Below, piece by piece: positions 3,901 to 17,977 of a DNA stretch of 64,000 nucleotides (positions within the stretch are counted from its first letter, which is position 1; each line of letters begins with the position of its first letter). The translations under genes were made by a program, and so were the position numbers. The notes beneath the pieces were generated by a model that saw nothing but the letters and a program-made list of their open reading frames with translations, searched no databases and had not been told where the DNA came from. The DNA lies in assembly GCA_026225215.1 (NCBI GenBank), contig JAMFSI010000039.1, positions 8,897-72,896 on the forward strand. Direction: 5' to 3'. The stretch is from Sphingomonas palustris (GTDB lineage: Bacteria > Pseudomonadota > Alphaproteobacteria > Sphingomonadales > Sphingomonadaceae).

Positions 3901-4434
3901 TCATTCAGCGGCAGCGCTGCGAGTGCTGGCCTCGGCCCACCATGCTTCGATAGCAGGCAGTTCAGCTGGAAGTACGACGTAAAAGGGGGACGCAAAATTA
4001 TCCCACACCGCCATGAATTTCGGCGCTACCGAAGTCAGAATCGGCGCCCCGGCCTCGATTGCCTCGATGAACGCGGGCAGCAGTCCCGAGCCTTTTTCCG
4101 CCTCGAGCTTGCCGAATTTGCTGAGCACGACAAGATCGCAGCCCGAGGCAATGTCCCGCCGCACCTGTTCGCCGGCCTCGACCAGCGACGGACTATCAAG
4201 CGCGCAGCCCGCCGATCCGGGGCCAAGATCCTGAAAGATCGGAAAGCTGCCATCACCGCCAAGGTTGGACAGCCGACCCTGCACCCGGCTGCGGCTTTCG
4301 TTACGCGGGTCTTCGATCACCCCGACGATTCTGGCACGGGTTTGCCAATGCGCGACGAATTGCCCGATGAGCTGCTGGATCGCGGCGCTATCCGCGCCTT
4401 GCACCACGGCGATCGGCTTTATGGCTTTGTCCAT
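3901..4434 (-). CDS. DUF2478-family protein
   Basis: CALDSPSL...DLVVLSKFGKLEAE.GSGL...AIEAGAPILTSV; start moved to ATG 4434 (MDKAIKP). Confidence 0.8.
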   Translation of the reverse strand: MDKAIKPIAVVQGADSAAIQQLIGQFVAHWQTRARIVGVIEDPRNESRSRVQGRLSNLGGDGSFPIFQDLGPGSAGCALDSPSLVEAGEQVRRDIASGCDLVVLSKFGKLEAEKGSGLLPAFIEAIEAGAPILTSVAPKFMAVWDNFASPFYVVLPAELPAIEAWWAEASTRSAAAE

Positions 4435-4653: not shown

Positions 4654-7600
4654 ATGTTTTCCTCCAGGCAAACCTCAGGCGCGCCGCGCGCAGGGGTGGA
4701 TTTACGGGCCGGAGCCGGCCTCGCCCTGATCATCCTGTTTTTCATTTTAAGCGGCGTCATTGCCTATTCCAACGTCAATGTGCTGCGCGACGATGCCACC
4801 AAAATTCAGCATTCGCATGATGTGATCGCCGCGCTCGACGAATTGCTGTCGACGATGCAGGATGCCGAAACCGGCCAACGCGGGTTTTTGCTGACCAGCA
4901 AGGAGCCCTATCTGGCTCCCTATGACGCTGCCGTCGCCCGCGCCGGACCGACCCTCGATCTGATCGCCAACCTTACTCGCGACAATCCATCGCAGCAGGC
5001 GCGGATGGTCCCGCTTCGCCGCCACGTCGATGCCAAGCTGGCCGAGCTGAAACAAACCATCGATCTGCGCCGGAGCGCCGGCAGCGACGCCGCCCTCGCC
5101 GTGGTCACCACCGATCGCGGCAAGGTCGAGATGGACGCCATCCGCACCCAGCTCGACCTGATGCAGCAGGAAGAAGCGCGGCTGCGCCAATTCCGGCAGG
5201 AGGAGATGTCCGGCGCTTATCAAACCGCCTGGGTCAGCGGCATCCTTTCCTGTCTGGTCGGCATCGTGCTGACCCTGGCCGTCGGTTTTCTGATCCGCCG
5301 GGCGACCGTGGCGCGCGAAAGGCTGCAGTGGCTGCAATCCGGCGAGGCGCGTTTGGCATCGGCGATGCTGGGGGACTTAGCTCCCGCCGAGTTGGGCGAA
5401 AACATCCTGAGCTTTCTGGCGCATTTTCTCGGGGGCCAGTGCGGCGCGATCTTCGCCGGCGACGGCGCGCATTACCAGCGGATCGCGGCCTATGGCGTGC
5501 CGGCGGATGCCAGGATCGTCGAGCGTTTTTCGCAGAAGGAAGGCTTGCTCGGACAAGTGGCGGCCGAACGCGCGCCGGCAATCTTGAGCGATATTCCCGA
5601 CGGCTATCTGGCGCTCGGCTCGGCGCTGGGACAAACCCAGCCGCGCCATGTGATCATTGCCCCGGCGATGGCCGATGATGTGGTTCGTGGCGTGGTCGAA
5701 CTCGGCTTTCTCCAGCCGGTGGGCGACCATGCGCAGGAGTTTCTCGCGATTGCAGCGGATGCGATCGGGATTGCGCTGCGATCGGCGGCCCTGCGCGCCG
5801 AATTGCAGAATTTGCTCGAGGAAACCCAGCGCCAGTCGGAGGAATTGCAGGTCCAGAGCGAAGAGCTGCGGGTCTCGAACGAGGAATTGGAGGAACAGGG
5901 ACGCGCGCTCAAGGAATCGCAGGTCCGCCTCGAACAGCAACAAGTCGAACTCGAGCAGACCAATTCCCAGCTGGAGGAACAGGCGGGGCAACTCGAAGCC
6001 CAGCGCGATGATCTCACCCGCTCGAATTCGGCGGTGGAATTGAAAGCGCGCGAGCTGGAGCGGGCGAGCCGCTACAAGTCGGATTTCCTTGCCAATATGT
6101 CGCACGAGCTGCGCACGCCGCTGAACTCGCTGCTGATCCTGTCCAAGCTGCTGTACGACAACCCCGCCGGCAATCTGACCGAAGACCAGGTCAAATATGC
6201 CCATACGATCCAGTCGTCCGGCAACGATCTGCTGCTGCTGATCAATGACATTCTTGATCTTTCCAAGATCGAGGCGGGGCAAGTCCAGGTGCGTCCGGAA
6301 ACGGTTTCGCTCGATCGGGTCGCTAATGACATGCGCCAGATGTTCCAGCCGCTCGCCAACGAGCGCGGGCTGCAATTCGATATCGACATCGCCGAGAACT
6401 GTCCCGCCACGATCGATACCGATCGTCAGCGCCTCGATCAGGTGTTGAAAAACCTACTCTCGAATGGCCTCAAGTTCACCGAAGCGGGCAGCGTTCGGCT
6501 TTCCCTGGCGCCAGCCGGTGCAGGTGAGATCGCCATTTCCGTCACCGACACGGGCATCGGCGTTGCCGAAGACCAACAGCGGGATATCTTCGAGGCTTTC
6601 CGCCAGGCTGACGGGACGATCAGTCGCAAATATGGCGGTACCGGGCTTGGTCTCTCGATTTCGCGCGAACTCGCGCGGTTGCTGGGGGGCAGCATTACCC
6701 TCACCAGCAAGCCTGGTGAAGGCAGTTGCTTCACGCTGACGCTCCCGCTGGCTTACGATCCCGCGCTGGTCGCGCCGCGCGCGGAACCTGCGCCGCTATC
6801 CCGCGAAAGCGCGGTGCTGGCGCTGCCAGTGAAACCGGCGCTGCTGCCGCGCAGAGTGGATGACGATCGCGAAAAATTAGAGACCAGTGGGCGGATTCTG
6901 CTGGTTGTCGAAGACGATGCCAGCTTTGCCGGCATCGTTCGGGATTTGTCGCGCGAGTTGGGATTCCAGTGCCTGGTCGCCGGGACCGCCGAGGAAGCCC
7001 TGCAACTGGCGCGCCAGTTCAACCCGAGCGCGGTGGTACTCGATGTCGGGCTGCCCGATCAGTCGGGGCTGGCGGTGCTCGATCGGCTCAAGCGCGATGT
7101 CGAGACGCGGCACATTCCGGTGCATGTCGTCTCCGCCAGCGATCATGGCCAAACCGCGTTGTCGCTCGGCGCGATCGGCTATTTGGTCAAGCCGGTGAAG
7201 CGCGAAGACCTCACCGAGGTGCTTGAAGCGCTCGCCGCGCAATTGGCGCGGACCGTGCGCCGGGTGCTGATCGTCGAGGATGACCCGGTCCAGCTCGATG
7301 CGGTCAAACGGTTGCTGGCATCGGGGGATGTCGAGACGGTGGGCGCGGGCACGGCTGCCGAGTGCTTGCAGCGTCTCACCGAAAACAGCTTCGATTGCAT
7401 CGTGCTGGATTTGACGCTGCCCGATGCCTCGGGCTTTGCCTTGCTGGAAACGCTGAGCGAGGATGGCAGCCACGGCTTCCCGCCGATCATCGTCTACACC
7501 GGGCACGATCTGTCTGCGGCGGACGAACAGCGGCTGCGGCGCTATTCCGATTCGATCATCATCAAAGGCGCGCGTTCGCCCGAGCGCTTGCTCGACGAAG

Positions 7601-8076
7601 TGTCGCTGTTCCTGCACCAGGTGGTAAAAGAACTACCCGCCGAGCAGCAGAAGATGATCCAGAAAGCGCGCAACCGCGATGCGATCCTGGAAGGGCGGCG
7701 CATCCTGATCGTCGAGGACGATGTCCGGAATATCTATTCGCTGACCAATATCCTCGAGCCGCGCGGTGCCGTGGTCGAGATTGCCCGGAACGGGCGGGAA
7801 GCGATCGAGGCGCTGGAGAAATCCGCGGGCAGCGATGCCAATGCGATCGACCTCGTGCTGATGGACGTGATGATGCCGGTCATGGATGGGCTGACGGCGA
7901 CGCGCGCCATTCGTCAGGATGCCCGCTGGAAAAAACTGCCGATCATCACCCTGACCGCCAAGGCCATGCCCGACGACCAGCAGCGCTGCATCGAGGCGGG
8001 GGCGAGCGATTACATGCCCAAGCCGCTCGACGTCGATCGGCTGCTATCGCTCGTCCGGGTCTGGATGCCGCGGTAG
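4654..8076 (+). CDS. hybrid histidine kinase: TM-CHASE3-TM-GAF-coiled coil-HisKA-HATPase-3xREC
   Basis: ETGQRGFLLT (CHASE3), FLANMSHELRTPLN, GGTGLGL, receiver motifs VLDVGLPD, VLDLTLPD, LMDVMMP; start uncertain (4618 or 4654). Confidence 0.95.
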   Translation: MFSSRQTSGAPRAGVDLRAGAGLALIILFFILSGVIAYSNVNVLRDDATKIQHSHDVIAALDELLSTMQDAETGQRGFLLTSKEPYLAPYDAAVARAGPTLDLIANLTRDNPSQQARMVPLRRHVDAKLAELKQTIDLRRSAGSDAALAVVTTDRGKVEMDAIRTQLDLMQQEEARLRQFRQEEMSGAYQTAWVSGILSCLVGIVLTLAVGFLIRRATVARERLQWLQSGEARLASAMLGDLAPAELGENILSFLAHFLGGQCGAIFAGDGAHYQRIAAYGVPADARIVERFSQKEGLLGQVAAERAPAILSDIPDGYLALGSALGQTQPRHVIIAPAMADDVVRGVVELGFLQPVGDHAQEFLAIAADAIGIALRSAALRAELQNLLEETQRQSEELQVQSEELRVSNEELEEQGRALKESQVRLEQQQVELEQTNSQLEEQAGQLEAQRDDLTRSNSAVELKARELERASRYKSDFLANMSHELRTPLNSLLILSKLLYDNPAGNLTEDQVKYAHTIQSSGNDLLLLINDILDLSKIEAGQVQVRPETVSLDRVANDMRQMFQPLANERGLQFDIDIAENCPATIDTDRQRLDQVLKNLLSNGLKFTEAGSVRLSLAPAGAGEIAISVTDTGIGVAEDQQRDIFEAFRQADGTISRKYGGTGLGLSISRELARLLGGSITLTSKPGEGSCFTLTLPLAYDPALVAPRAEPAPLSRESAVLALPVKPALLPRRVDDDREKLETSGRILLVVEDDASFAGIVRDLSRELGFQCLVAGTAEEALQLARQFNPSAVVLDVGLPDQSGLAVLDRLKRDVETRHIPVHVVSASDHGQTALSLGAIGYLVKPVKREDLTEVLEALAAQLARTVRRVLIVEDDPVQLDAVKRLLASGDVETVGAGTAAECLQRLTENSFDCIVLDLTLPDASGFALLETLSEDGSHGFPPIIVYTGHDLSAADEQRLRRYSDSIIIKGARSPERLLDEVSLFLHQVVKELPAEQQKMIQKARNRDAILEGRRILIVEDDVRNIYSLTNILEPRGAVVEIARNGREAIEALEKSAGSDANAIDLVLMDVMMPVMDGLTATRAIRQDARWKKLPIITLTAKAMPDDQQRCIEAGASDYMPKPLDVDRLLSLVRVWMPR

Positions 8077-8078
8077 CT

Positions 8079-8903
8079 ATGTCCGACCTTATCGAGGACA
8101 TCGAGATCCGGCTGCTGCTGGAGGCGCTGCATCAGCGCTACCACTATGATTTTCGCAATTACGCCCAGGCATCGATCCGGCGTCGGCTGCGGCAGGCGCG
8201 TGACCAGCTGGGGTTCGCGAATTTCTCGGCCTTGCAGGAAGCCTTGTTACACGATGAGGCGATGTTGCCGCGATTGCTTGCCTATCTGACGGTCCAGGTC
8301 AGCGAGATGTTCCGCGACCCGTCCTATTTCCGGGCGATCCGCGAAAAGGTCGTACCGCACCTGCGCACCTTTCCGTCGCTCAAGATCTGGATTGCGGGCT
8401 GCAGCACCGGCGAGGAACTCTATTCCTTCGTCATTCTCTTTCGCGAGGAGGGGCTGGAGCAACGGACATTGTTTTATGCCACCGACATCAGCCAGGATGC
8501 GCTCGATGCGGCGGCGAGAGGAATCTATTCGCTCGACCGGATGAGGACCTTCACTGAGAATCACCGCGCTGCCGGTGGAAAATCCTCGCTGTCCGAATAT
8601 TATCGCACCGCTTACGGTAATGCCGTGCTCGATCAGGGTTTGCGCGATAAGGTGGTGTTCTCCGATCACAGCCTCGTCACTGACGCGGTTTTCGGCGAGA
8701 TGCATCTCATTTCCTGCCGTAACGTGCTAATCTATTTCAATCGCGATTTGCAGGACCGTGCCATCGGTTTGTTTCGGGATTCGCTGGGCCGGAAGGGGTT
8801 TCTGGGGCTGGGTTCCAAGGAGAATATTCGCTTTTCGAGCCATGCCGATGGTTTCAGCGATTTCGCTCGCCAGGATAAGATCTATCAAAGGCGCGAAGCA
8901 TGA
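8079..8903 (+). CDS. cheR: CheR-type protein-glutamate methyltransferase
   Basis: VSEMFRDP, IWIAGCSTGEE.YS, ATDIS, ISCRNVLIYF; start ATG 8079. Confidence 0.95.
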   Translation: MSDLIEDIEIRLLLEALHQRYHYDFRNYAQASIRRRLRQARDQLGFANFSALQEALLHDEAMLPRLLAYLTVQVSEMFRDPSYFRAIREKVVPHLRTFPSLKIWIAGCSTGEELYSFVILFREEGLEQRTLFYATDISQDALDAAARGIYSLDRMRTFTENHRAAGGKSSLSEYYRTAYGNAVLDQGLRDKVVFSDHSLVTDAVFGEMHLISCRNVLIYFNRDLQDRAIGLFRDSLGRKGFLGLGSKENIRFSSHADGFSDFARQDKIYQRREA

Positions 8904-9487
8904 GCAGCAGCGAGGCACCCGAAGGCGCGCGCCTGGTCGTGATCGGTGCGTCGGCGGGCGCGCTCCAGGCCTTGACGCAGATCCTGCCGGCGCTGCCTGT
9001 CGATTATCCCTTGCCGATCCTGATCGTGGTTCACATTCCCCCGGATCGGCGGAACATGCTGGCGCCGCTGTTCCAGGCAAAATGCCGCATGGCGGTTCGC
9101 GAAGCGGAGGACAAGGAGCCGGGGCTGGCGGGCGTGGTCTATTTCGCTCCGCCCGACTATCATCTGCTGGTCGAGACGGATGGCACTCTTTCGCTGTCGA
9201 GTGACGAGGAAGTCTGGTTCTCCCGGCCATCGATCGACGTCTTGTTCGAAAGCGCGGCCGATGCCTATGGTGCCGGTGTGATCGGGATCATCCTGACCGG
9301 CGCCAATCCGGACGGTGCGAGTGGATCGAAGGCGATCGCCGATGCCGGGGGCACCGTGCTCGTGGAAGACCCGGCGACGGCTTATGCCAGTGCGATGCCG
9401 CTCGCGGCGTTGCAGGCTTGCGGGACAGCGCGGGCCATGCCGCTCGCCGCTATCGCGAACTGCTTATTGAAAGAGTGTGCCGCATGA
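8900..9487 (+). CDS. cheB: CheB-type methylesterase, catalytic domain only (no REC)
   Basis: IGASAG (Ser), VVHIP (His), GANPDG (Asp); RPSIDVLFESAA. Confidence 0.93.
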   Translation: MSSSEAPEGARLVVIGASAGALQALTQILPALPVDYPLPILIVVHIPPDRRNMLAPLFQAKCRMAVREAEDKEPGLAGVVYFAPPDYHLLVETDGTLSLSSDEEVWFSRPSIDVLFESAADAYGAGVIGIILTGANPDGASGSKAIADAGGTVLVEDPATAYASAMPLAALQACGTARAMPLAAIANCLLKECAA

Positions 9488-10623
9488 TCAGTGCTATGGA
9501 ACCGGTACACTTTCTTCTGGTCGATGATCTGGCGGAGAATCTCGTCTCGCTGGAAGCCCTGCTCAAGCGCGACGACTTGGTGCTGTTGAAGGCGCAGTCA
9601 GCGGATCAAGCGCTGGAATTGCTGCTGACTCATGACGTCGCGCTGGCGCTGCTCGACGTCCAGATGCCGGGAATGGACGGGTTCGAGCTGGCCGAATTCA
9701 TGCGCGGCAGCGAGCGGACGCGACATATTCCGATCATCTTCGTGACCGCGGGGAGCGCCGATAATCAGCGCCGCTTCCGCGGTTATGAAGCCGGTGCGGT
9801 CGATTTTATCCAGAAGCCGATCGAGGCGGATATCCTGCGCAGTAAGGCCAATGTGTTTTTCGACCTCTATCGCCAGCGCCAGCAGATTGCCGCCCAGCGC
9901 GACGAATTGGCGGTGGCGTCACAAGCGCTCCACGATGCGGATCGGCGCAAGGATGAATTTCTCGCGATCCTGGCGCATGAATTGCGCAATCCGGTCGCCG
10001 CGATCGGCGGCGGTTTGCGGCTGTTGAAGCGGCATGCGACCTCCGAGCCAGCCGAGGATCTGCGCGGCAAGATGGAGCGCCAGCTGTTCCATTTATCGCG
10101 TCTGGTCGAGGATCTGCTCGATATCTCGCGGATCAGCGAAGGCAAAATCCTGCTGCAAAAGGACCGCGTCGCCCTGGATACGATCGTGCGATCCGCGATC
10201 GAGGCGAGCCAGGCCAATCTCGATGCGGCTCGCCATAGCTTTACCGTCGATTTGCCGCAGGAGCCGATCTGGCTCCATGCCGATCACACCAGGATCGCAC
10301 AGGTCCTGGCGAATCTGCTCAACAATGCCGCCAAATATACGCCGCCTGGTGGCCATATCTCGCTTTCGGCGCGGCGCGCTGGTGGGCATGTCGAGATTTG
10401 CGTAGCGGACGATGGCATTGGCATCCCCGCCGAAATGCAATCGCAGATATTCCAGATTTTCGCGCAAGTCGAAGGCCATCGCATTCGCGCGGCGGGCGGT
10501 CTAGGCGTGGGCTTGGCCTTGGTCCGCCAACTGGTGGCGCTCCACGACGGATCAATCGCCGTGCACAGCGAAGGACAAGGGAAGGGCAGTCAATTTACGA
10601 TCAGACTGCCCATCGAAACTTAG
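9484..10623 (+). CDS. REC-HisKA-HATPase hybrid kinase
   Basis: LLDVQMP receiver; LAHELRNP H-box; NAAKYT, DDGIG, GLGVGL; ATGA overlap with cheB. Confidence 0.93.
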   Translation: MISAMEPVHFLLVDDLAENLVSLEALLKRDDLVLLKAQSADQALELLLTHDVALALLDVQMPGMDGFELAEFMRGSERTRHIPIIFVTAGSADNQRRFRGYEAGAVDFIQKPIEADILRSKANVFFDLYRQRQQIAAQRDELAVASQALHDADRRKDEFLAILAHELRNPVAAIGGGLRLLKRHATSEPAEDLRGKMERQLFHLSRLVEDLLDISRISEGKILLQKDRVALDTIVRSAIEASQANLDAARHSFTVDLPQEPIWLHADHTRIAQVLANLLNNAAKYTPPGGHISLSARRAGGHVEICVADDGIGIPAEMQSQIFQIFAQVEGHRIRAAGGLGVGLALVRQLVALHDGSIAVHSEGQGKGSQFTIRLPIET

Positions 10624-10650
10624 AGCGGGCAGCTGTGATCGAAATCCACT

Positions 10651-10744
10651 CCCGTCCATACTGAGCTTGTCGAAGCATTGCCTTGTTCTTCGGGTAAGAC
10701 CCAGAAAAGAAAGGCAGTGCTTCGACAAGCTCAGGACGGACGGG
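10651..10744. repeat. REP-like palindrome, type CCCGTCC..GAGCTTGTCGAAGC (copy 1 of 3)
   Basis: Inverted arms CTGAGCTTGTCGAAGCA / TGCTTCGACAAGCTCAG; also at 34793 and 37644. Confidence 0.92.
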
Positions 10745-10789
10745 AAAAGGGTCCGGGGTCGCGGTTAGCTGCTGCGCACTTTGGCATCC

Positions 10790-11010
10790 TTGCCATGCAG
10801 GGCTCGCAGCCGCCGAGTTGGGCACTGCGGATGCGGAGCGTTGCGAGCAGCTTGCCGCTGAGCAGATGGCGCGGGTAATTATAGTGCCGGTCGCCGTCAT
10901 CGGGGATTTATCATGCTCGGAACAGGCGGGGATGGGCGACGCCGTCTTGTCGGGCGGCGAGCCGCCTTCCTGAATGGTATGCTCCATGCGCAGCCGCTGG
11001 ATCGGTTGCG
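10790..11010 (-). pseudogene. frameshifted 5' fragment paralogous to the CMD/AhpD gene at 17994-18605
   Basis: One minus frame reads PDDGDRHYNYPRHLLSGKLLATLRIRSAQLGGCEPCMA (intact copy: PDDGDRHPNYPRHLLDGKLLELLRIRSAQLGGCEPCMA); 1-nt deletion near 10909; truncated beside the REP. Confidence 0.85.
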
Positions 11011-11078
11011 CGCAGCAGCGGAGCCTTGCCCCGCTCGTCCTAAGTCATTCCGCTACCCTCGCCGATGTCCATCCTGTT

Positions 11079-11094
11079 ATTCCAATAATGGAAT
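11079..11094. promoter_or_regulatory. candidate IclR operator ATTCCA-ATAA-TGGAAT
   Basis: Palindrome upstream of the acyl-CoA ligase operon; same motif at 16126 and 19468. Confidence 0.75.
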
Positions 11095-11252
11095 ATATAC
11101 TTTTCTATGTGGAATTGTGTGATTGACTCCAGGCTGAGTCAACGGCTTTGTGACTAGATCAGCGGCCCGGCGATGGGTGTTGTCGTTGACGACCGGGCGA
11201 TAGGCAGACAATTCAGAGCCACGCGGCGTGAACGCAATGGGATGAGGATGAA

Positions 11253-12836
11253 ATGAGCGGACAAGACGGTTCGTATCGGGATTTGCATCGGCCGCTGTAC
11301 ACTGCCGAGGTTCTGGCCAATGCGCTGAACAGCGGCGGCAGCCGGCCGCTGCTCCATATCCAGGGTGTCGCCACGCTGACGGTCGCCCAGGTCCGTGATG
11401 CCACCAGCCAATTCGTCCAAACGCTGGCGAGCCTGGGGGTCGGCAAGGGATCGCGGGTGGCGATGATCGCACCCAACCGTCCGGAATGTCTCCACGTCAC
11501 TCATGCGCTGCAATTGCTGTCGGCGATCTATGTCCCGCTGCATCCGTTGGCCGGGCTGTCCGATCACCTCCATGTGATCCGCGACGCCGAACTCGATATT
11601 CTCGTCTTCGACGCCGAACGCTTCGCGGCGCGCGCGACCGAGATTACTGCGGATATTGCGGGCATCCGGCTGTTGGCGCTCGGCGAAAGCCCGCTAGCGG
11701 ACGACATTTTCCGGCTTGCCGACAGCTTTACCCCGGGCCGACTGGCGCCCGCGCCTGAAGGCGAACATGATATCCTGCGCCTCGGCTATTCGGGCGGCAC
11801 CACCGGTAAGCCCAAGGCGATCCCCAGTTGCGCGCGCACTGGCGCTTACACCGGGCAGCTGATGCAATCGACCTGGGAATGGCCCAATCCGCCCATCATC
11901 CTCACTTGCGCGCCGCTCACGCATGCCGGCGGCGCGATGTTCATGCCGGCGCTGCTGCGCGGCGGCACGCTGCTGGTGATGAATGGCTTCGAGCCGGTGA
12001 AGGTGATGCAGGCGATCGCGGCGCATCGCATCAATTGCATGCTGATGGTGCCGACGATGATCTATGCGCTGCTCGATTGTCCGCGGCTCGGCGAGTTCGA
12101 TCTGTCGAGCCTGGAGACGGTGTTCTACGGTGCCTCGGCGATCTCGCCGGCGCGGCTGCGCGAAGCGATCCAGCGGATCGGGCCGGTGTTCGCGCAATTC
12201 TACGGCCAGGCCGAAGCGCCGATGGCGATCACCTATTTCAGCAAGGCCGATCACGACGTCAACGACCTGACCCGGCTGGCGAGCTGCGGCAAACCCAGCC
12301 CCTATATCCGCGTCGAACTGATGGACGCCGACTGCAAGCCGGTGGCCGAAGGCGAGCCCGGCGAGATCTGCGTGCAGGGGCCGCTGGTGATGGATGGCTA
12401 CCGCGATCCCGCACTGACCGTCGAAGCCTTTCGCGGCGGCTGGCTGCACACCGGCGATGTTGCGGTGCGCGATAGCGAGGGTTTCCTGCGGATCGTCGAT
12501 CGCACCAAGGACATGATCGTCTCCGGCGGCTTCAACATCTATCCGCGCGAGATCGAGGATATCATCGGTGAGCATGCGGCGGTGAGCCAGGTCGCGGTGA
12601 TCGGTGTTCAGCATCCGAAATGGGGCGAGGCGGTGACGGCGATCGTGGTGCTCAAACCAGACCAAAGCGTGGATCAGGTCGAACTGATCGCGCAAGTGGC
12701 CGAGCGCAAAGGCTCATTCCAGGCGCCCAAGTCGGTGATATTCGTCGATGCGATTCCGCAGACGCCGGTGGGCAAGCCCGACAAGAAGGCGCTGCGCGTG
12801 CAATTCGTGCGGCGCCGGTGGCATGAGCGAGCTTAG
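11253..12836 (+). CDS. AMP-forming acyl-CoA synthetase
   Basis: YSGGTTGKPK, FYGQAE, WLHTGD, RTKDMIVSGGFNIYPREIE, GKPDKKAL. Confidence 0.95.
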   Translation: MSGQDGSYRDLHRPLYTAEVLANALNSGGSRPLLHIQGVATLTVAQVRDATSQFVQTLASLGVGKGSRVAMIAPNRPECLHVTHALQLLSAIYVPLHPLAGLSDHLHVIRDAELDILVFDAERFAARATEITADIAGIRLLALGESPLADDIFRLADSFTPGRLAPAPEGEHDILRLGYSGGTTGKPKAIPSCARTGAYTGQLMQSTWEWPNPPIILTCAPLTHAGGAMFMPALLRGGTLLVMNGFEPVKVMQAIAAHRINCMLMVPTMIYALLDCPRLGEFDLSSLETVFYGASAISPARLREAIQRIGPVFAQFYGQAEAPMAITYFSKADHDVNDLTRLASCGKPSPYIRVELMDADCKPVAEGEPGEICVQGPLVMDGYRDPALTVEAFRGGWLHTGDVAVRDSEGFLRIVDRTKDMIVSGGFNIYPREIEDIIGEHAAVSQVAVIGVQHPKWGEAVTAIVVLKPDQSVDQVELIAQVAERKGSFQAPKSVIFVDAIPQTPVGKPDKKALRVQFVRRRWHERA

Positions 12837-13752
12837 CCACCCCCTCGCTGGCCGCGTCGTGCTGATCACCGGCGCGGGACGCGGGCTCGGACGCGCGCAT
12901 GCTCTGGCCTGCGCGGCGCTGGGTGCGCGCATCGTCGTCAATGACTTCGGCGGTTCGCGCGATGGCGTCGGCGCGTCATCCGGCCCGGCGGATGAAGTGG
13001 TCGCGGAAATCCGGGCGGCAGGCGGCGAGGCCGTGGCCCATGCCGGCAATGTGGCCGAGCCCGAAGATGCAGCTTCAATGGTCGCGCTGGCGCTTGATCG
13101 CTTCGGAGAGTTGCACGCTTTGGTCAACAATGCCGGCATTCTGCGCGACAGAAGCCTGCTTAATCTGACAATCGACGAATGGACGCAGGTGGTCGATGTC
13201 CATCTGCGCGGCACTTTCGTGATGACTCAGGCCGCCGGGCGCTACTGGCGCGACCAGGCCAAGGCCGGTACCCCGATCGCCGCGCGCATCGTCAACACCT
13301 CCTCGGGCAGCGGCTTGTTCGGCAATTTCGGCCAGGCCAACTACAGCGCGGCCAAGGGCGGCATCGCCTCGCTCACCGCGACCACCGCGATCGAGCTAGG
13401 CCGTTACGGCGTCACCGCCAATGCCATTGCCCCGGTTGGCAAGACTCGCCTGATTTCGGAAGATCCCGAATTCGTAAAACTCAAGGAAGGCTTCGATCCG
13501 CTCGATCCCGCCAATGTCTCGCCATTGGTGACCTGGCTGGTCAGCGAGGAGTCCGGCGAGATCACCGGGCGCACCTTCTCGGTTGCCGGGGGTTATATCG
13601 GCGTGGTCGAGGGCTATCTGCGCGGCCCCGGCATGCAGCACGACCGCAAACTGACCTTCGCCGATATCGACGCCGAGTTACCAGTGCTCGTCGCACAATC
13701 GCGGCCCCGCACCAGCGCGTATGAATCTCACCCCTATTCGGGGCGCGGCTGA
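12823..13752 (+). CDS. SDR, 3-hydroxyacyl-CoA dehydrogenase/MFE-2 N-terminal-like
   Basis: TGAGRGLG, NNAGILRD, YSAAK; start ATG 12823. Confidence 0.92.
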   Translation: MSELSHPLAGRVVLITGAGRGLGRAHALACAALGARIVVNDFGGSRDGVGASSGPADEVVAEIRAAGGEAVAHAGNVAEPEDAASMVALALDRFGELHALVNNAGILRDRSLLNLTIDEWTQVVDVHLRGTFVMTQAAGRYWRDQAKAGTPIAARIVNTSSGSGLFGNFGQANYSAAKGGIASLTATTAIELGRYGVTANAIAPVGKTRLISEDPEFVKLKEGFDPLDPANVSPLVTWLVSEESGEITGRTFSVAGGYIGVVEGYLRGPGMQHDRKLTFADIDAELPVLVAQSRPRTSAYESHPYSGRG

Positions 13753-14591
13753 TGCCACTGGACCTGTCCGCCGTCGGCCGTGAAAGCGGGCCTCATCCGG
13801 TCGAGTGGAATTCGCGCGATGCGATCATCTATGCGCTGGGCGTCGGCGCGGGGTCGCAGGACCCCTATCGGGAATTGGCCTTCACCACCGAGAATTCGAC
13901 CGGGATCGCCCAGCAGGTCCTGCCGACTTTCGCGCTGGTGGTGAGCCCGCGCCAGGCGGCGCCGATTGCGATCGGCGAGTTCGACCGCAGCAAGACCGTC
14001 CATGGCGAGCAGGCCTTGATCCTGCACAAGCCGCTGCCGCCCGATGGCAAGGGCTTTGCGACCAATCGCATCGACGCCATGTACGACAAGGGCAGCGGCG
14101 CGCTGGTGGTGCGCACCACGATGCTCACCGCCGAGGATGGGCGGCCGCTGGCGACGGCGCATATTGGCCAATTCATTCGGGGCGAGGGCGGCTTCGGCGG
14201 CGACCCCGGCCCCAAATTCGACTGGACCGCGCCCGATCGAGTGCCGGACCACACCATCTTGCAGCCCACGCGCTCCGACCAGGCACTGCTTTATCGGCTC
14301 TCGGGCGATCGCAATCCGCTGCACTCGGACCCAGCCTTTGCGAAGCGCGCCGGCTTCGAGAAGCCGATCCTGCATGGCATGTGCAGCTTCGGCTTCATCG
14401 GGCGAGCGATCCTGGCGCTGGCGGACCATGATCCGGCCCGCTTCAAAAGCATGAAGGCGCGTTTTTCCAAGCCGGTCATTCCCGGCGAAACGCTGCGCAG
14501 CGAATTCTGGATAGACGGCGGCGCGATCCGGTTCCGCAGCTTCGTTGGCGATCGGATGGTGCTGGATGGCGGCGAGGCGGAGATAGCATGA
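13752..14591 (+). CDS. MaoC-type (R)-enoyl-CoA hydratase, double hot-dog fold
   Basis: YALGVG, HGEQ, YRLSGDRNPLHSDP, PILHGMCSFG. Confidence 0.93.
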   Translation: MPLDLSAVGRESGPHPVEWNSRDAIIYALGVGAGSQDPYRELAFTTENSTGIAQQVLPTFALVVSPRQAAPIAIGEFDRSKTVHGEQALILHKPLPPDGKGFATNRIDAMYDKGSGALVVRTTMLTAEDGRPLATAHIGQFIRGEGGFGGDPGPKFDWTAPDRVPDHTILQPTRSDQALLYRLSGDRNPLHSDPAFAKRAGFEKPILHGMCSFGFIGRAILALADHDPARFKSMKARFSKPVIPGETLRSEFWIDGGAIRFRSFVGDRMVLDGGEAEIA

Positions 14592-14995
14592 GCATGAAAC
14601 CGGTCCCCATACCCACCCCAGAGACCCAGACCTTCTGGGATAAAGCGCGCGAGCATGAATTGTGGCTGCCGAAATGCGTTGATAGCGGGCAAGTGTTCTT
14701 TCCGCCGCGCGCCTTCTCGCCGTTCACCGGCGGAGCGGTGGCGTGGGAAAAGGCCAGCGGTAAGGCGAAGCTCGCCTCCTTCGTCATCGTCCACCGCCCC
14801 TCGCCGGGCTATGAGGCAGAGGCGCCCTATGTGATCGCCCTGGCCGAATTGGCCGAGGGTCCGCGGATGATGACCAATTTGCCCGGTGCGCCGGTCGATC
14901 CTGCCGCGCTGACCATCGGCGCGCCGCTCATCGTAAGTTTCGAGGCGCGCGGCGACATCGTCATTCCGCAATTTCGCCTGGAGGATGAGGCATGA
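14588..14995 (+). CDS. DUF35 Zn-ribbon/OB-fold protein (ChsH2-C/BbsA/PhlB-like)
   Basis: PTPETQTFW, C..SG..FFPPR, PYVIALAELAEGPRMMTNL; the zinc-ligand set looks reduced (only one Cys). Confidence 0.88.
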   Translation: MSMKPVPIPTPETQTFWDKAREHELWLPKCVDSGQVFFPPRAFSPFTGGAVAWEKASGKAKLASFVIVHRPSPGYEAEAPYVIALAELAEGPRMMTNLPGAPVDPAALTIGAPLIVSFEARGDIVIPQFRLEDEA

Positions 14996-16122
14996 GCGTG
15001 GTGATCGTCGGCGCTACCGAATCCGCACGGTTGGGGGTGGTGCCCGATCAATCGGCAATGTCGCTGGCTTGTGAATCTGCGATTGCCGCTTTGCGCCAGG
15101 CTGGTCTCACGATTACCGATGTCGATGGCGTCGCCGGCACGATGTCGCCGATCGAGATCGCCTTTGCGCTCGGCGCCAAGCCGCGCTGGCTCGACGGAAC
15201 CATGGTCGGCGGCTGTTCCTACATGCTCCATGTCCGTCATGCAGTGGCCGCGATCGAGGCGGGGCAGGCCGATGTCGTCGTTATCGCTCATGGCGAATCC
15301 GGGCGGTCGCGCGTCGGTGCGCCGAGTTACACCAAGAATCCCAGCGATCTGACCGGGCAGTTCGAAATGCCTTATGGCATCCTCGGCTCATACACGCGCT
15401 TCACCCTGCCGGTGATGGCCTATCTCCATAAATATGGCCTCGGAGAAGCCGATCTCGCCGAGGTACCCGTTGCCCAGTCGCGGTGGGCGAATCGCAATCC
15501 GCGTGCTCTAAGACCGGAGTTGCTGTCGGTCGACGACGTGCTGGCATCGCCGCTGATTGCGTGGCCGTTCCATCGGTTCGAATGCTGCCCGGTCACGGAT
15601 GGCGGCGGCGCGCTGGTGCTGACCTCGCAGGAACGCGCGGCGGATATGAACCTGCGCTATCGCCCGATAACGGTAATCGGCAGCGGCGAATCCTGCGAGG
15701 GTCCGGGTCCGGTGTTCATGGAGGATCTGACCAGTTTCCGCGCTTTCCGCGATGCTTCCGCCGCGGCGATGCGCACTTCGGGCGTCAGCCATGCTGAGGT
15801 CGATCATCTGATGATCTATGACGCCTTCGCGCATGTGCCGATATATGGCCTCGAAGATATGGGCTTCGTCGGGCGCGGCGAAGCGGTGGACTTCATTCGC
15901 AGCGGCGCGACCAGCCCCGGCGGTTCGCTGCCGATGAATACCACCGGCGGCGGTTTGCTTTATACGCATACCGGCATGTACGGGATGTTTGCGCTGCTCG
16001 AGGCGGTGCGCCAGCTTCAGGGCTGTGCCGCCGCTCAGCTTGACCAGGTGCGGACCAGCCTCGTGCTTGGCGCGGGCGGGATGTTCAGCGCCGCTGGCGC
16101 GGTAATGCTCCGTGCAGATTGA
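14992..16122 (+). CDS. SCP2/Ltp2-type thiolase-fold protein
   Basis: GGCS, ECCPVTDGGGA, IYDAF, NTTGGGLLYTH; coupled to the DUF35 gene. Confidence 0.9.
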   Translation: MSVVIVGATESARLGVVPDQSAMSLACESAIAALRQAGLTITDVDGVAGTMSPIEIAFALGAKPRWLDGTMVGGCSYMLHVRHAVAAIEAGQADVVVIAHGESGRSRVGAPSYTKNPSDLTGQFEMPYGILGSYTRFTLPVMAYLHKYGLGEADLAEVPVAQSRWANRNPRALRPELLSVDDVLASPLIAWPFHRFECCPVTDGGGALVLTSQERAADMNLRYRPITVIGSGESCEGPGPVFMEDLTSFRAFRDASAAAMRTSGVSHAEVDHLMIYDAFAHVPIYGLEDMGFVGRGEAVDFIRSGATSPGGSLPMNTTGGGLLYTHTGMYGMFALLEAVRQLQGCAAAQLDQVRTSLVLGAGGMFSAAGAVMLRAD

Positions 16123-16125
16123 AAT

Positions 16126-16139
16126 TTCCAATACTGGAA
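16126..16139. promoter_or_regulatory. candidate IclR autoregulatory operator TTCCA-ATAC-TGGAA
   Basis: Same palindrome as 11080 and 19468, directly upstream of the IclR gene. Confidence 0.75.
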
Positions 16140-16190
16140 TGAGTTTGCTATCGCTCATGAAATGTAAGGCTTGAAACGGGAATGCGTTGA

Positions 16191-17087
16191 GTGTCGGAAA
16201 TGTCAAACCCCACCAGCCGCGTGATCGACGTGCTGAATTTTCTCGCCGCTCACCCCACCGAAACCTTCTCGCTTGCCGAAATTGCTCGCCATGTCGGGCT
16301 GAGCAACGGCTCCGCACACCGTATCTTGACGACTCTGGCTGGCGCACAATTTCTGTCGCGTAACGACAAGCGGCGGACTTATTCTCTCGGCGTGGCGATG
16401 GTGGCGATCGGCCAGGCCACGGTCGAAAAGCATCGCGGCATCGAAGTCGCCAGACGCGAAATCGGCCGCCTTGCCGTCGAGCTGGATTTGCAATGCAGCG
16501 CCAACGCTGTGGTCGATGGCGAGCTGCTGGTGCTGGTCAAGGAAGGCAACCCGCGGTCGCATCGCGGTTTGACGCGGGTCGGCGAACGCCGCCCATTGCT
16601 GCCGCCGCTGGGGCTGTGTCACATCGCCTGGGGCGGCGATGCGGTGATCGAGGCCTATCTCGACAAGGCGGCCCCGCATTTGAGCGAGGCGGTGCGAGCG
16701 CATCTTCTTGCGGCTTTTCCGCTGATCAGACGACGCGGCTATGCCACGGCAGCCAATGGCGCCATCATCCTCCATGCCCGCGAAGCCACGATGATTGCCG
16801 CCAATCAAATTCGCGATCAGGCCTATTGGTCATCGGTATTCACCTCGATCGAGCATCTGACGCCGAACGAGGTGCAATTGTTCGACATCAAAGACGCGGG
16901 CGACGTCGGCGTGGGTTACATCGCCGCACCGGTGTTCTCGCCGGCCGGTACCGTTGCTTTTCAGCTGGTCATTACCGGGCTGCCGGCCGATCTCCGCACA
17001 AGGGAGATCGAGCGCTACGCGGAAAGATTATGCGCGACAGCAGCCTTGATCACGAACGAGACTCACGGGCGACCGCCAAAGGGCTGA
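16191..17087 (+). CDS. IclR-family transcriptional regulator
   Basis: RVIDVLNFL...SLAEIARHVGLSNGSAHRILTTL HTH; RRRGYA and IAAPVF effector-domain motifs. Confidence 0.92.
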   Translation: MSEMSNPTSRVIDVLNFLAAHPTETFSLAEIARHVGLSNGSAHRILTTLAGAQFLSRNDKRRTYSLGVAMVAIGQATVEKHRGIEVARREIGRLAVELDLQCSANAVVDGELLVLVKEGNPRSHRGLTRVGERRPLLPPLGLCHIAWGGDAVIEAYLDKAAPHLSEAVRAHLLAAFPLIRRRGYATAANGAIILHAREATMIAANQIRDQAYWSSVFTSIEHLTPNEVQLFDIKDAGDVGVGYIAAPVFSPAGTVAFQLVITGLPADLRTREIERYAERLCATAALITNETHGRPPKG

Positions 17088-17122
17088 CGCTGGGGATCGT
17101 TGTCGTGCCGGATCCAACCAAA

Positions 17123-17152
17123 CGGGCGGCGTGACCGCAATCACGCCGCCCG
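17123..17152. terminator. hairpin between convergent genes, probable terminator
   Basis: CGGGCGGCGTGA-ccgcaa-TCACGCCGCCCG, 12-bp perfect stem. Confidence 0.7.
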
Positions 17153-17161
17153 CTTATGGCA

Positions 17162-17977
17162 TCAACCCTCGGCCAATAGCTTGTGCTCGTGCGCCTGCCT
17201 GGCGGTATCCTCGCGCGGGGCGATGGCATGAGCGAGCACGGTCTCGGCGCGATTGTCGACGCCGTTGATCAGCCGGGCGCGCTCGATATTGCCGGGGGTG
17301 CTGACGATCCACACCGGGCCATCGGCGATATTGTCGAGCCCTTCGCGCGCTACAGTCTCGGGCGGTTCGGCCAGTTCGATCGGCATGCCGAGCCGGGCCA
17401 TCGCCGGGGTCGCGGTGAAGCCGATGTTGAGGTGCAGCACATCGACGCCCAGCGGCTTGAGTTCGGCCCAGAGCGCTTCGGAAAAGATCCGGCTGAAGGC
17501 TTTCGAGGCGGTATAAGCGGCCAGCGTCGGCGATCCGAGATAGCTGCTCAGCGAACCACCCAGGATGATCCCGCCGCGCCCGCGCTTGACCATCAGCGCG
17601 CCATAATGGCGGGAAAGATTGGCCTGGCCCAGCACGTTGATGGAAATCACCGACTGCGTGACGGCTTCGGGCAGTTCGGTGAACAGCCCGCGCGTATCGT
17701 TGGCGCCGGCATTGTACACGAGCAGCCCGACGTCGATGTCGTCGGTCACCGTGCGAATCTGGTCGAGCACATCAGGCTTGCTGAGATCGGCCGAGAGGAT
17801 ACGTACCTCGGCGCCCTTGCCGCGCAGTTCATCGGCCAGTTCTTCCAGTGGCGCGGTTTTGCGTGCGGTCAGGACCAGCTTGAAACCGTCCGCCGCCAGC
17901 AAACGGGCGAAAGCCGCGCCGACGCCTTCGGAGCCGCCGATCACCAGCGCCCAAGGGCCATATTTTTCGAGATTCAT
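17162..17977 (-). CDS. SDR oxidoreductase
   Basis: IGGSEGVG, YNAG, YTASK; start moved to ATG 17977. Confidence 0.92.
   Translation of the reverse strand: MNLEKYGPWALVIGGSEGVGAAFARLLAADGFKLVLTARKTAPLEELADELRGKGAEVRILSADLSKPDVLDQIRTVTDDIDVGLLVYNAGANDTRGLFTELPEAVTQSVISINVLGQANLSRHYGALMVKRGRGGIILGGSLSSYLGSPTLAAYTASKAFSRIFSEALWAELKPLGVDVLHLNIGFTATPAMARLGMPIELAEPPETVAREGLDNIADGPVWIVSTPGNIERARLINGVDNRAETVLAHAIAPREDTARQAHEHKLLAEG

Follow-up and report, generated by a model that had tools for sequence, protein, structure and literature searches.

Described relatives of the locus

The closest described system is the sigma-B sensing module RsbK-RsbM(-RsbY) of Bacillus cereus (Chen et al. 2012; Chen et al. 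2015), in which the CheR-type methyltransferase RsbM methylates the hybrid kinase RsbK on its signalling helix (S-helix), as followed with a 14C-labelled S-adenosylmethionine (SAM) assay (Chen et al. 2015, PMC4574943). RsbK has the architecture CHASE3-HAMP-GAF-S-helix-HK-CA-REC, and RsbK-like kinases number 127 in 10 phyla; RsbM has no paired esterase, and the B. cereus authors think that demethylation is not used (PMC4574943). A class of 'methyl-accepting coiled-coil' (MAC) proteins was named in 2010, with the profile hidden Markov models MAC1 and MAC2 being MiST-specific (PMC6943060); as far as we found, this class is a genomic prediction without biochemistry. In Pseudomonas alkylphenolica, a cluster of the CHASE3/GAF kinase BmsA (3082), CheR (3081), CheB (3080) and a hybrid kinase (3079) is described in connection with biofilm and motility (PMC8175716), and Agrobacterium has an orphan second CheR, atu4805 (PMC7725337). 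In this study we analyse a locus of Sphingomonas palustris, at positions 4654-10623 of a 64,000-nucleotide stretch of contig JAMFSI010000039.1 (the window), where a CHASE3-GAF hybrid histidine kinase, cheR, cheB and a second kinase form one operon. Judged by the comparison of sequences, a conserved Glu-rich coiled coil of the hybrid kinase is functionally tied to the CheR/CheB enzyme pair. We consider it probable (roughly 0.7) that the locus is a self-contained, methylation-tuned two-component cassette, in which CheR and CheB would reversibly methylate the kinase's own coil.

The original prediction, made from the DNA alone, described the operon as a CHASE3-GAF hybrid kinase with three receivers, cheR, a cheB without receiver and a REC-kinase, and Pfam recovers all four genes with these domains, on the same strand. 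The cheR gene extends from an ATG at 8079, rather than 8080, to 8903. The stop codon of the kinase (8074-8076) is followed by a 2-nt gap before this ATG, and ATGA overlaps are present at both the cheR/cheB and the cheB/REC-kinase junctions, so that translational coupling of the four genes is plausible. The features are given below, with the basis of each in brackets.

4654..8076, + strand: hybrid sensor histidine kinase, 1140 residues, with a first transmembrane segment (TM1), CHASE3, a second (TM2), GAF, Glu-rich coil, HisKA, HATPase_c and three REC domains (open reading frame, translation, Pfam)
4795..5202, + strand: CHASE3 periplasmic sensor domain, residues 48-183 (PF05227, E 9.8e-43)
5383..5778, + strand: GAF domain, residues 244-375 (PF13185 / PF01590)
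5815..5985, + strand: candidate methyl-accepting coil core, residues 388-444 (heptad layout, lowest-entropy window, motif linkage)
6076..6279, + strand: HisKA dimerisation and phospho-acceptor domain, His484 codon at 6103-6105 (PF00512, H-box located)
6421..6753, + strand: HATPase_c catalytic domain (PF02518)
6892..8055, + strand: three tandem receivers, starting at residues 747, 870 and 1016 (PF00072, three stretches)
8079..8903, + strand: cheR, protein-glutamate O-methyltransferase, 274 residues, CheR_N and SAM-binding domain (Pfam, alignment to PDB structures)
8900..9487, + strand: cheB, receiver-less protein-glutamate methylesterase, 195 residues (PF01339, E 1e-54)
9484..10623, + strand: REC-HisKA-HATPase kinase (REC-kinase), 379 residues, no Glu-Glu heptads (Pfam; overlap with cheB; fourth gene in related loci)

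Hydrophobic stretches at residues 21-38 and 192-214, placed by eye, bracket CHASE3, and each of the three kinase receivers has an acidic pocket, with the phospho-acceptor Asp in VLDVGLPD, VLDLTLPD and LMDVMMP, respectively. In the kinase, Pfam detects neither HAMP (E <= 0.01) nor PF00015, the signalling domain of methyl-accepting chemotaxis proteins (MCPs), and it leaves the 90 residues that separate GAF from HisKA without a match. Pfam on the cluster and its neighbouring genes likewise finds no MCPsignal, CheW or CheA within the operon or its flanks, in agreement with the original prediction. Its term 'receptor-less' is thus right for the operon; it is not right for the genome, in which another contig (C58) carries an MCP with CheW, CheA, CheB and CheR.

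The likeness to RsbK-RsbM(-RsbY) rests on the described architecture and operon, not on sequence alignment. Both kinases combine CHASE3 and GAF with a signalling helix ahead of HisKA, a catalytic domain and a receiver at the C-terminus, and in both cases the gene of a CheR-type methyltransferase belongs to the kinase operon. The S-helix is the demonstrated methyl acceptor in B. cereus, where its methylation alters the kinase output, and the predicted acceptor here. The two systems differ in the HAMP of RsbK, for which none is detected here, in the number of receivers (one there, three here), in the dedicated CheB esterase, present here only, and in the fourth gene, which is here a REC-kinase with no RsbY/PP2C-sigma-B output nearby; PP2C or anti-sigma genes are absent from the immediate neighbours of the operon. 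With the Pseudomonas BmsA cluster, as described in PMC8175716, the locus shares the order of the four genes and the domains of the kinase, and differs in its host, a sphingomonad. A further difference entered under this comparison is the coil subtype, SEELRVSNEELEEQ here versus NEELQ(V/T)QQEEL(K/R)xANEEL in five genomes of one family (L125-L128, L130). The gammaproteobacterial loci compared, of Halopseudomonas and Dyella and with no named Pseudomonas record among them, have a CheR 73-76% identical to ours, and Agrobacterium loci are also found among the matches to the cassette.

The kinase resembles the MAC class in being a non-MCP protein that combines a conserved coil, candidate methylation sites and a genomic tie to CheB/CheR; the fused form of the class is represented in the source genome by a CheB-CheR-PAS-kinase fusion on contig C119. 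With MCP adaptation in E. coli and Salmonella (Tar, Tsr) the locus has in common the two enzyme families, catalytic motifs intact, and acidic pairs recurring every seven residues along a long helix that adjoins the signalling output. Unlike that system, the locus has neither CheA nor CheW nor an MCP signalling domain, the CheB has no receiver, and the antiparallel four-helix bundle is replaced by a presumably parallel two-helix coiled coil, in which the small-residue flanks are largely missing and the main pairs show no Glu/Gln alternation. On the whole, the principle of methylation has been demonstrated in a single Gram-positive system, prediction of the class dates back to 2010, and the operon is a further copy of a widespread, little-studied cassette. 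The original prediction underrated the published work on the principle, namely RsbM/RsbK, the MAC proteins and the Pseudomonas gene order. A search confined to open full text gave no published role for the paired CheB and no printed NEELQ-type motif.

The glutamate-rich coil and its linkage to CheR and CheB

A Glu-rich coil had been noticed before HisKA at about 5810-6010, and we locate its core at 5815-5985. The coil is made up of 13 unbroken heptads (residues 381-471) that run into the H-box with His484. Four heptads in a row have a Glu-Glu pair at the same two positions, namely at 389/390, 396/397, 403/404 and 410/411 (codons 5818-5823, 5839-5844, 5860-5865 and 5881-5886), and further acidic pairs are present at 413/414 (5890-5895) and 441/442 (5974-5979). 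One of the two core positions is held by Leu, with Glu-Glu directly before it, and the other ('a') by Ser, Asn, Gly or Gln. The claimed likeness to MCP methylation helices is true of the heptad-spaced acidic pairs and mostly fails at their flanks. The methylation consensus of MCPs has small residues at -4/-3 and +4/+5. The kinase coil fits poorly at these positions and the CheB-CheR fusion type, treated below, fits better; this consensus was consequently dropped as an argument for the kinase coil.

Related loci were fetched via CheR alone from contigs of one genome per species, and the best 80 of more than 586 matching stretches were used, which belong to Sphingomonadales, Rhizobiales, Caulobacterales, Acetobacterales, Pollutimonas, Halopseudomonas and Dyella and include two plasmids. 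Over these 80 loci of Alpha-, Beta- and Gammaproteobacteria CheR is 71-82% identical, the kinase orthologues upstream of it are 58-75% identical, and the order kinase-cheR-cheB-REC-kinase is kept in every locus with sufficient flank. The entropy per column was calculated from 76 full-length kinase orthologues. The coil core (residues 388-444) has an entropy of 0.28 bits and an identity of 93.5%, compared with 0.34 bits for HisKA, 0.6-0.9 for the receivers, 0.94 for HATPase, 1.49 for GAF and 1.52 for CHASE3, and the 57-residue window of lowest entropy in the entire 1140-residue kinase begins exactly at residue 388. Within residues 403-415 (EELRVSNEELEEQ), 10 of the 13 residues are invariant in 76/76, among them 403-407 and 409-412 with both Glu-Glu-Leu units, and the remaining three (408, 413 and 415) are at least 95% conserved. 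Conservation is as strict at the exposed heptad positions (0.30 bits) as at those of the core (0.24 bits). An invariant surface of this kind is needless for a plain structural coiled coil, and recognition by other proteins would explain it. As a control, 1.18 bits were obtained for the linker helix before HisKA of the REC-kinase, calculated from 61 sequences of these loci. An earlier sample of orthologues, picked by coil similarity, gives the same picture, but it is biased and hence not relied on. Alternation of Glu and Gln was tried as a hallmark of methylation sites and rejected, as it is absent at 403/404 and 410/411 and minor mixes occur only at 442, 462 and 383. In the wider family Gln is the commonest alternative at the first position, but the heptad-extension rule partly builds that in.

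The two enzymes keep their catalytic motifs. CheR, aligned to the structures of B. subtilis (5FTW) and Salmonella (1BC5), retains FR(E/D), STGEE, (S/T)DI and IYF, motifs that contain the residues known in the Salmonella enzyme as Arg98, the SAM-binding loop, Asp154 and Tyr235. Its N-domain has a basic helix, RRRLRQAR, aligned to a segment that is presumably Salmonella α2, and such a helix suits an acidic substrate. CheB consists of the CheB_methylest domain alone, with no N-terminal receiver according to Pfam, and in the alignment to 1CHD and 3SFT it keeps the motifs GAS(T/A)G, (Q/V)H(M/I)PP and (N/P)DG; its Ser18, His45 and Asp138 align with the Ser of GASTGG, the His of QHMPP and the Asp of GMGNDG of Salmonella CheB (1CHD), in line with the receiver-less cheB and intact Ser/His/Asp that had been read from the DNA. 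Within the cassette CheR is conserved best, its mean entropy over the 80 loci being 0.70 bits versus 1.07 (kinase) and 1.22 (CheB), and this conservation, together with the intact motifs, argues that cheR and cheB are not a relic or a decaying pair.

The linkage of coil and enzymes was also analysed beyond these orthologues. In the source genome, a regular expression for the Glu-Glu-Leu heptads matches 2 of 23,300 six-frame open reading frames (ORFs), both CheR-linked, and the motif is found in 2 of the 17 HisKA kinases detected by phmmer, which are the operon kinase and the fusion on contig C119 (12691-17343). The latter is a 1550-residue protein of the layout CheB-CheR-(NEEF/NEEL heptads)-PAS_10-HisKA-HATPase-REC-REC-GerE, with the motif located after the CheR domain. 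Among 201 evenly drawn Pseudomonadota genomes, a blind DNA pattern (three Glu-Glu-Leu/Phe units seven codons apart) gives about 165 matches against about 12 for a reversed control, with 49 of the 201 genomes matched. We took ±7 kb around all 64 listed motif sites and identified CheR and CheB with self-built, iterated profiles. At these sites, 43 of 67 motif ORFs have CheB and CheR in the same polypeptide, the motif being mostly about 110-250 residues past CheR, and another 20 have a cheR that overlaps or lies a few hundred nucleotides away, mostly with a cheB too; only four have neither enzyme nearby, one of them cut by a contig end and three being true exceptions. Overall, 63 of the 66 decidable motif proteins are linked to CheR/CheB, a share for which no p-value is given since related genomes are not independent, and at base rate no more than a few per cent would have an adjoining cheR. 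The heptad consensus of the family is Asn-Glu-Glu-Leu-(Gln/Arg/Glu)-x-x. Motif kinases of the adjacent type are 976-1604 residues long with the motif at residues 318-923, and their N-terminal parts, judged by length and motif position alone, probably differ. In addition, a tandem pair of CheB-CheR fusion genes occurs in one genome (L145:4880-8275 and 8464-11814), and in another a 561-residue motif part forms an ORF of its own, 1.9 kb downstream of a CheB-CheR ORF (L167:2885-4738 and 6632-8314), which may represent a split form.

Proposed methylation of the coil and competing explanations

For a pair of enzymes directed at glutamate and a helix defined by evenly spaced Glu pairs, the simplest tie is that of enzyme and substrate. 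The original prediction had proposed the kinase itself as the CheR/CheB substrate, and the coil conservation, the 63/66 linkage, the intact motifs and the RsbK precedent together support it by comparison; its strict 'adaptation' stays a conjecture. We infer coil methylation, the Glu residues hit, the direction of the effect and adaptation as the outcome from this comparison, and the cassette would work as follows. The kinase would sense through the periplasmic CHASE3 and the cytoplasmic GAF domain and pass the signal to HisKA through the long parallel coiled coil acting as signalling helix. CheR, with SAM, would methylate Glu residues of the heptad-spaced Glu-Glu pairs at residues 389-411, and the receiver-less CheB would strip the methyl groups from the coil. 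The polar Asn/Ser at one core position points to a coil of marginal stability, and its packing should respond to neutralised adjacent charges; with 'a' being Ser, Asn, Gly or Gln, neutralisation would shift the packing or the register of the coil. This shift would reset the balance of autokinase and phosphatase, leading to gain control or adaptation without chemoreceptor, CheA and CheW. Phosphoryl groups would move to the kinase's three receivers and/or to the receiver of the REC-kinase and be relayed to a further regulator. All four receivers of the cassette have canonical acidic pockets on reading their residues, and the 93%-complete assembly has no stand-alone Hpt for a phosphorelay, its single Hpt match lying inside CheA, which makes a route from His484 to the kinase's own receivers and/or that of the REC-kinase, and then onward, the likeliest one. 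The REC-kinase is likely both phospho-acceptor and next kinase of the cassette.

A stronger version, in which the writer CheR and the eraser CheB provide the two-component kinase with true chemoreceptor-style adaptation, that is methylation memory and integral feedback, we hold to be rather doubtful. As CheB has no receiver, it would be the conformation of the coil that provides the feedback for adaptation. The precedent of B. cereus is one of static repression only, with no paired eraser (PMC4574943).

The assembly (3.8 Mb, 205 contigs, 93% complete) has a sole che cluster, on contig C58 at 10196-17230, which contains the only MCP ORF of the genome together with CheW, CheA, CheB and CheR. The CheR domain of this cluster is matched in two parts (14416-14679 and 14636-14992) that overlap and differ in frame, which means either a frameshifted gene or an assembly error. 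Absence of MCPs was tried as a test and set aside, because MCPs are found in 47 of 48 motif genomes and the test does not discriminate. One genome, G025, has no MCPsignal match and a fusion as its single CheR, yet CheW-like genes are present there.

Several observations weigh against coil methylation. The flanks of the kinase Glu-Glu pairs do not match the small-residue consensus of MCPs, and pairs 403/404 and 410/411 show no Glu/Gln alternation in the 76 orthologues, unlike many MCP sites. Three motif kinases (L136:2142-6494, L159:2-3751 and L164:4235-7099) have no cheR or cheB in the fetched flanks. The MCP of the source genome with its CheA and CheW, and the MCPs in nearly all motif genomes, leave cross-talk possible. 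The extreme conservation of the coil could partly reflect its role in signal transmission, and locus counts overstate independence, as kin share genes. No published CheR methylation of a proteobacterial kinase, the Pseudomonas kinase included, was found in the open full text searched.

Among the competing explanations, the coil might be a docking or regulatory site of CheR/CheB, while methylation falls on other residues of the kinase, on the REC-kinase or on an unlinked protein. Conservation and gene linkage point to a functional tie of coil and enzymes and not to its chemistry, and the invariance of the Glu-Glu pairs without Glu/Gln alternation, as well as the further acidic pairs at 413/414 and 441/442, would suit a docking site. 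However, RsbK is methylated on its very S-helix (PMC4574943), the fusion proteins and the adjacent-type kinases share no element other than the motif, and the REC-kinase has no comparable conserved acidic tract, and we consider docking without coil methylation improbable. A different possibility is that the coil is conserved solely as a finely tuned signalling helix, CheR and CheB either acting on another substrate or being regulatory relics. Signalling helices are functionally constrained, and the cassette is known from sequence alone, which leaves some room for it; against this, the linker of the REC-kinase is four-fold more variable in the 61-sequence subset of the same loci, the exposed positions of the coil are as fixed as its core, and the motif goes with CheR/CheB in kinases that differ in length and layout. 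The best-conserved CheR of the cassette, its catalytic motifs intact, is moreover no relic. This possibility has the smallest chance in our estimate.

The presence of a single MCP/CheW/CheA cluster in the genome, whose cheR is read in two overlapping frames and may be broken, raises the question of whether cheR and cheB are a spare adaptation module for the chemoreceptor pathway of contig C58, adjacency to the kinase reflecting only co-regulation. The occurrence of MCPs in 47/48 motif genomes agrees with this. However, a cheB and a cheR belong to the C58 cluster itself, and the four genes of the cassette keep their order in 80 loci of three proteobacterial classes, plasmids included, independent of che genes nearby. 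The CheB has no receiver, through which CheA normally controls CheB, and CheR3 of P. putida, from the homologous cluster, reportedly does not methylate the MCPs on which it was tried. The linkage of motif and CheR in 63 of 66 proteins would also be left unexplained, and we regard the spare module as very improbable.

Surroundings, spread and significance

The neighbours of the operon are unrelated to it, with DUF2478, Zn-dehydrogenase, MarR, isochorismatase and MFS genes upstream and an acyl-CoA ligase gene downstream. The DUF2478 gene (3901-4413, - strand) is divergent from the kinase, and the intergenic region of about 240 bp between them should hold the operon promoter. Directly 3' of the REC-kinase stop, a long inverted repeat at 10640-10745 (…GAGCTTGTCGAAGCA… / …TGCTTCGACAAGCTC…) may act as the terminator. 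Elsewhere in the genome, a second receiver-less CheB of 192 residues is located on contig C46 (18100-18675), with neighbours mostly without Pfam matches; our own profiles find no CheR on this contig of 23,969 bases, and a 626-residue HisKA protein lies about 2.7 kb from the CheB on the opposite strand. A further CheB, in a 379-residue ORF, is present on contig C182.

Novosphingobium sp. PhB165 has the cassette twice in one genome (L005, L006), Rhizobium and Neorhizobium have it on plasmids (L029, L043), and CheR identity reaches 76-80% in Beta- and Gammaproteobacteria (L007 of Pollutimonas, L045 of Halopseudomonas). Duplication, plasmid location and high identity in these classes suggest that all four genes have spread horizontally as one unit.

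Reversible methylation of the coil, if it takes place, would mean that sensory adaptation of the chemotaxis type extends beyond chemoreceptor arrays and is a common add-on to two-component kinases. The coil is common to more than 5000 protein clusters, and its motif is present in a quarter of the 201 sampled Pseudomonadota genomes. The cassette is compact and based on soluble enzymes, and its near-invariant segment at residues 403-415 pinpoints the residues concerned. In addition, the heptad Glu-Glu-Leu motif is a practical annotation marker, by which CheR/CheB pairs dedicated to a kinase can be told from those of chemotaxis.

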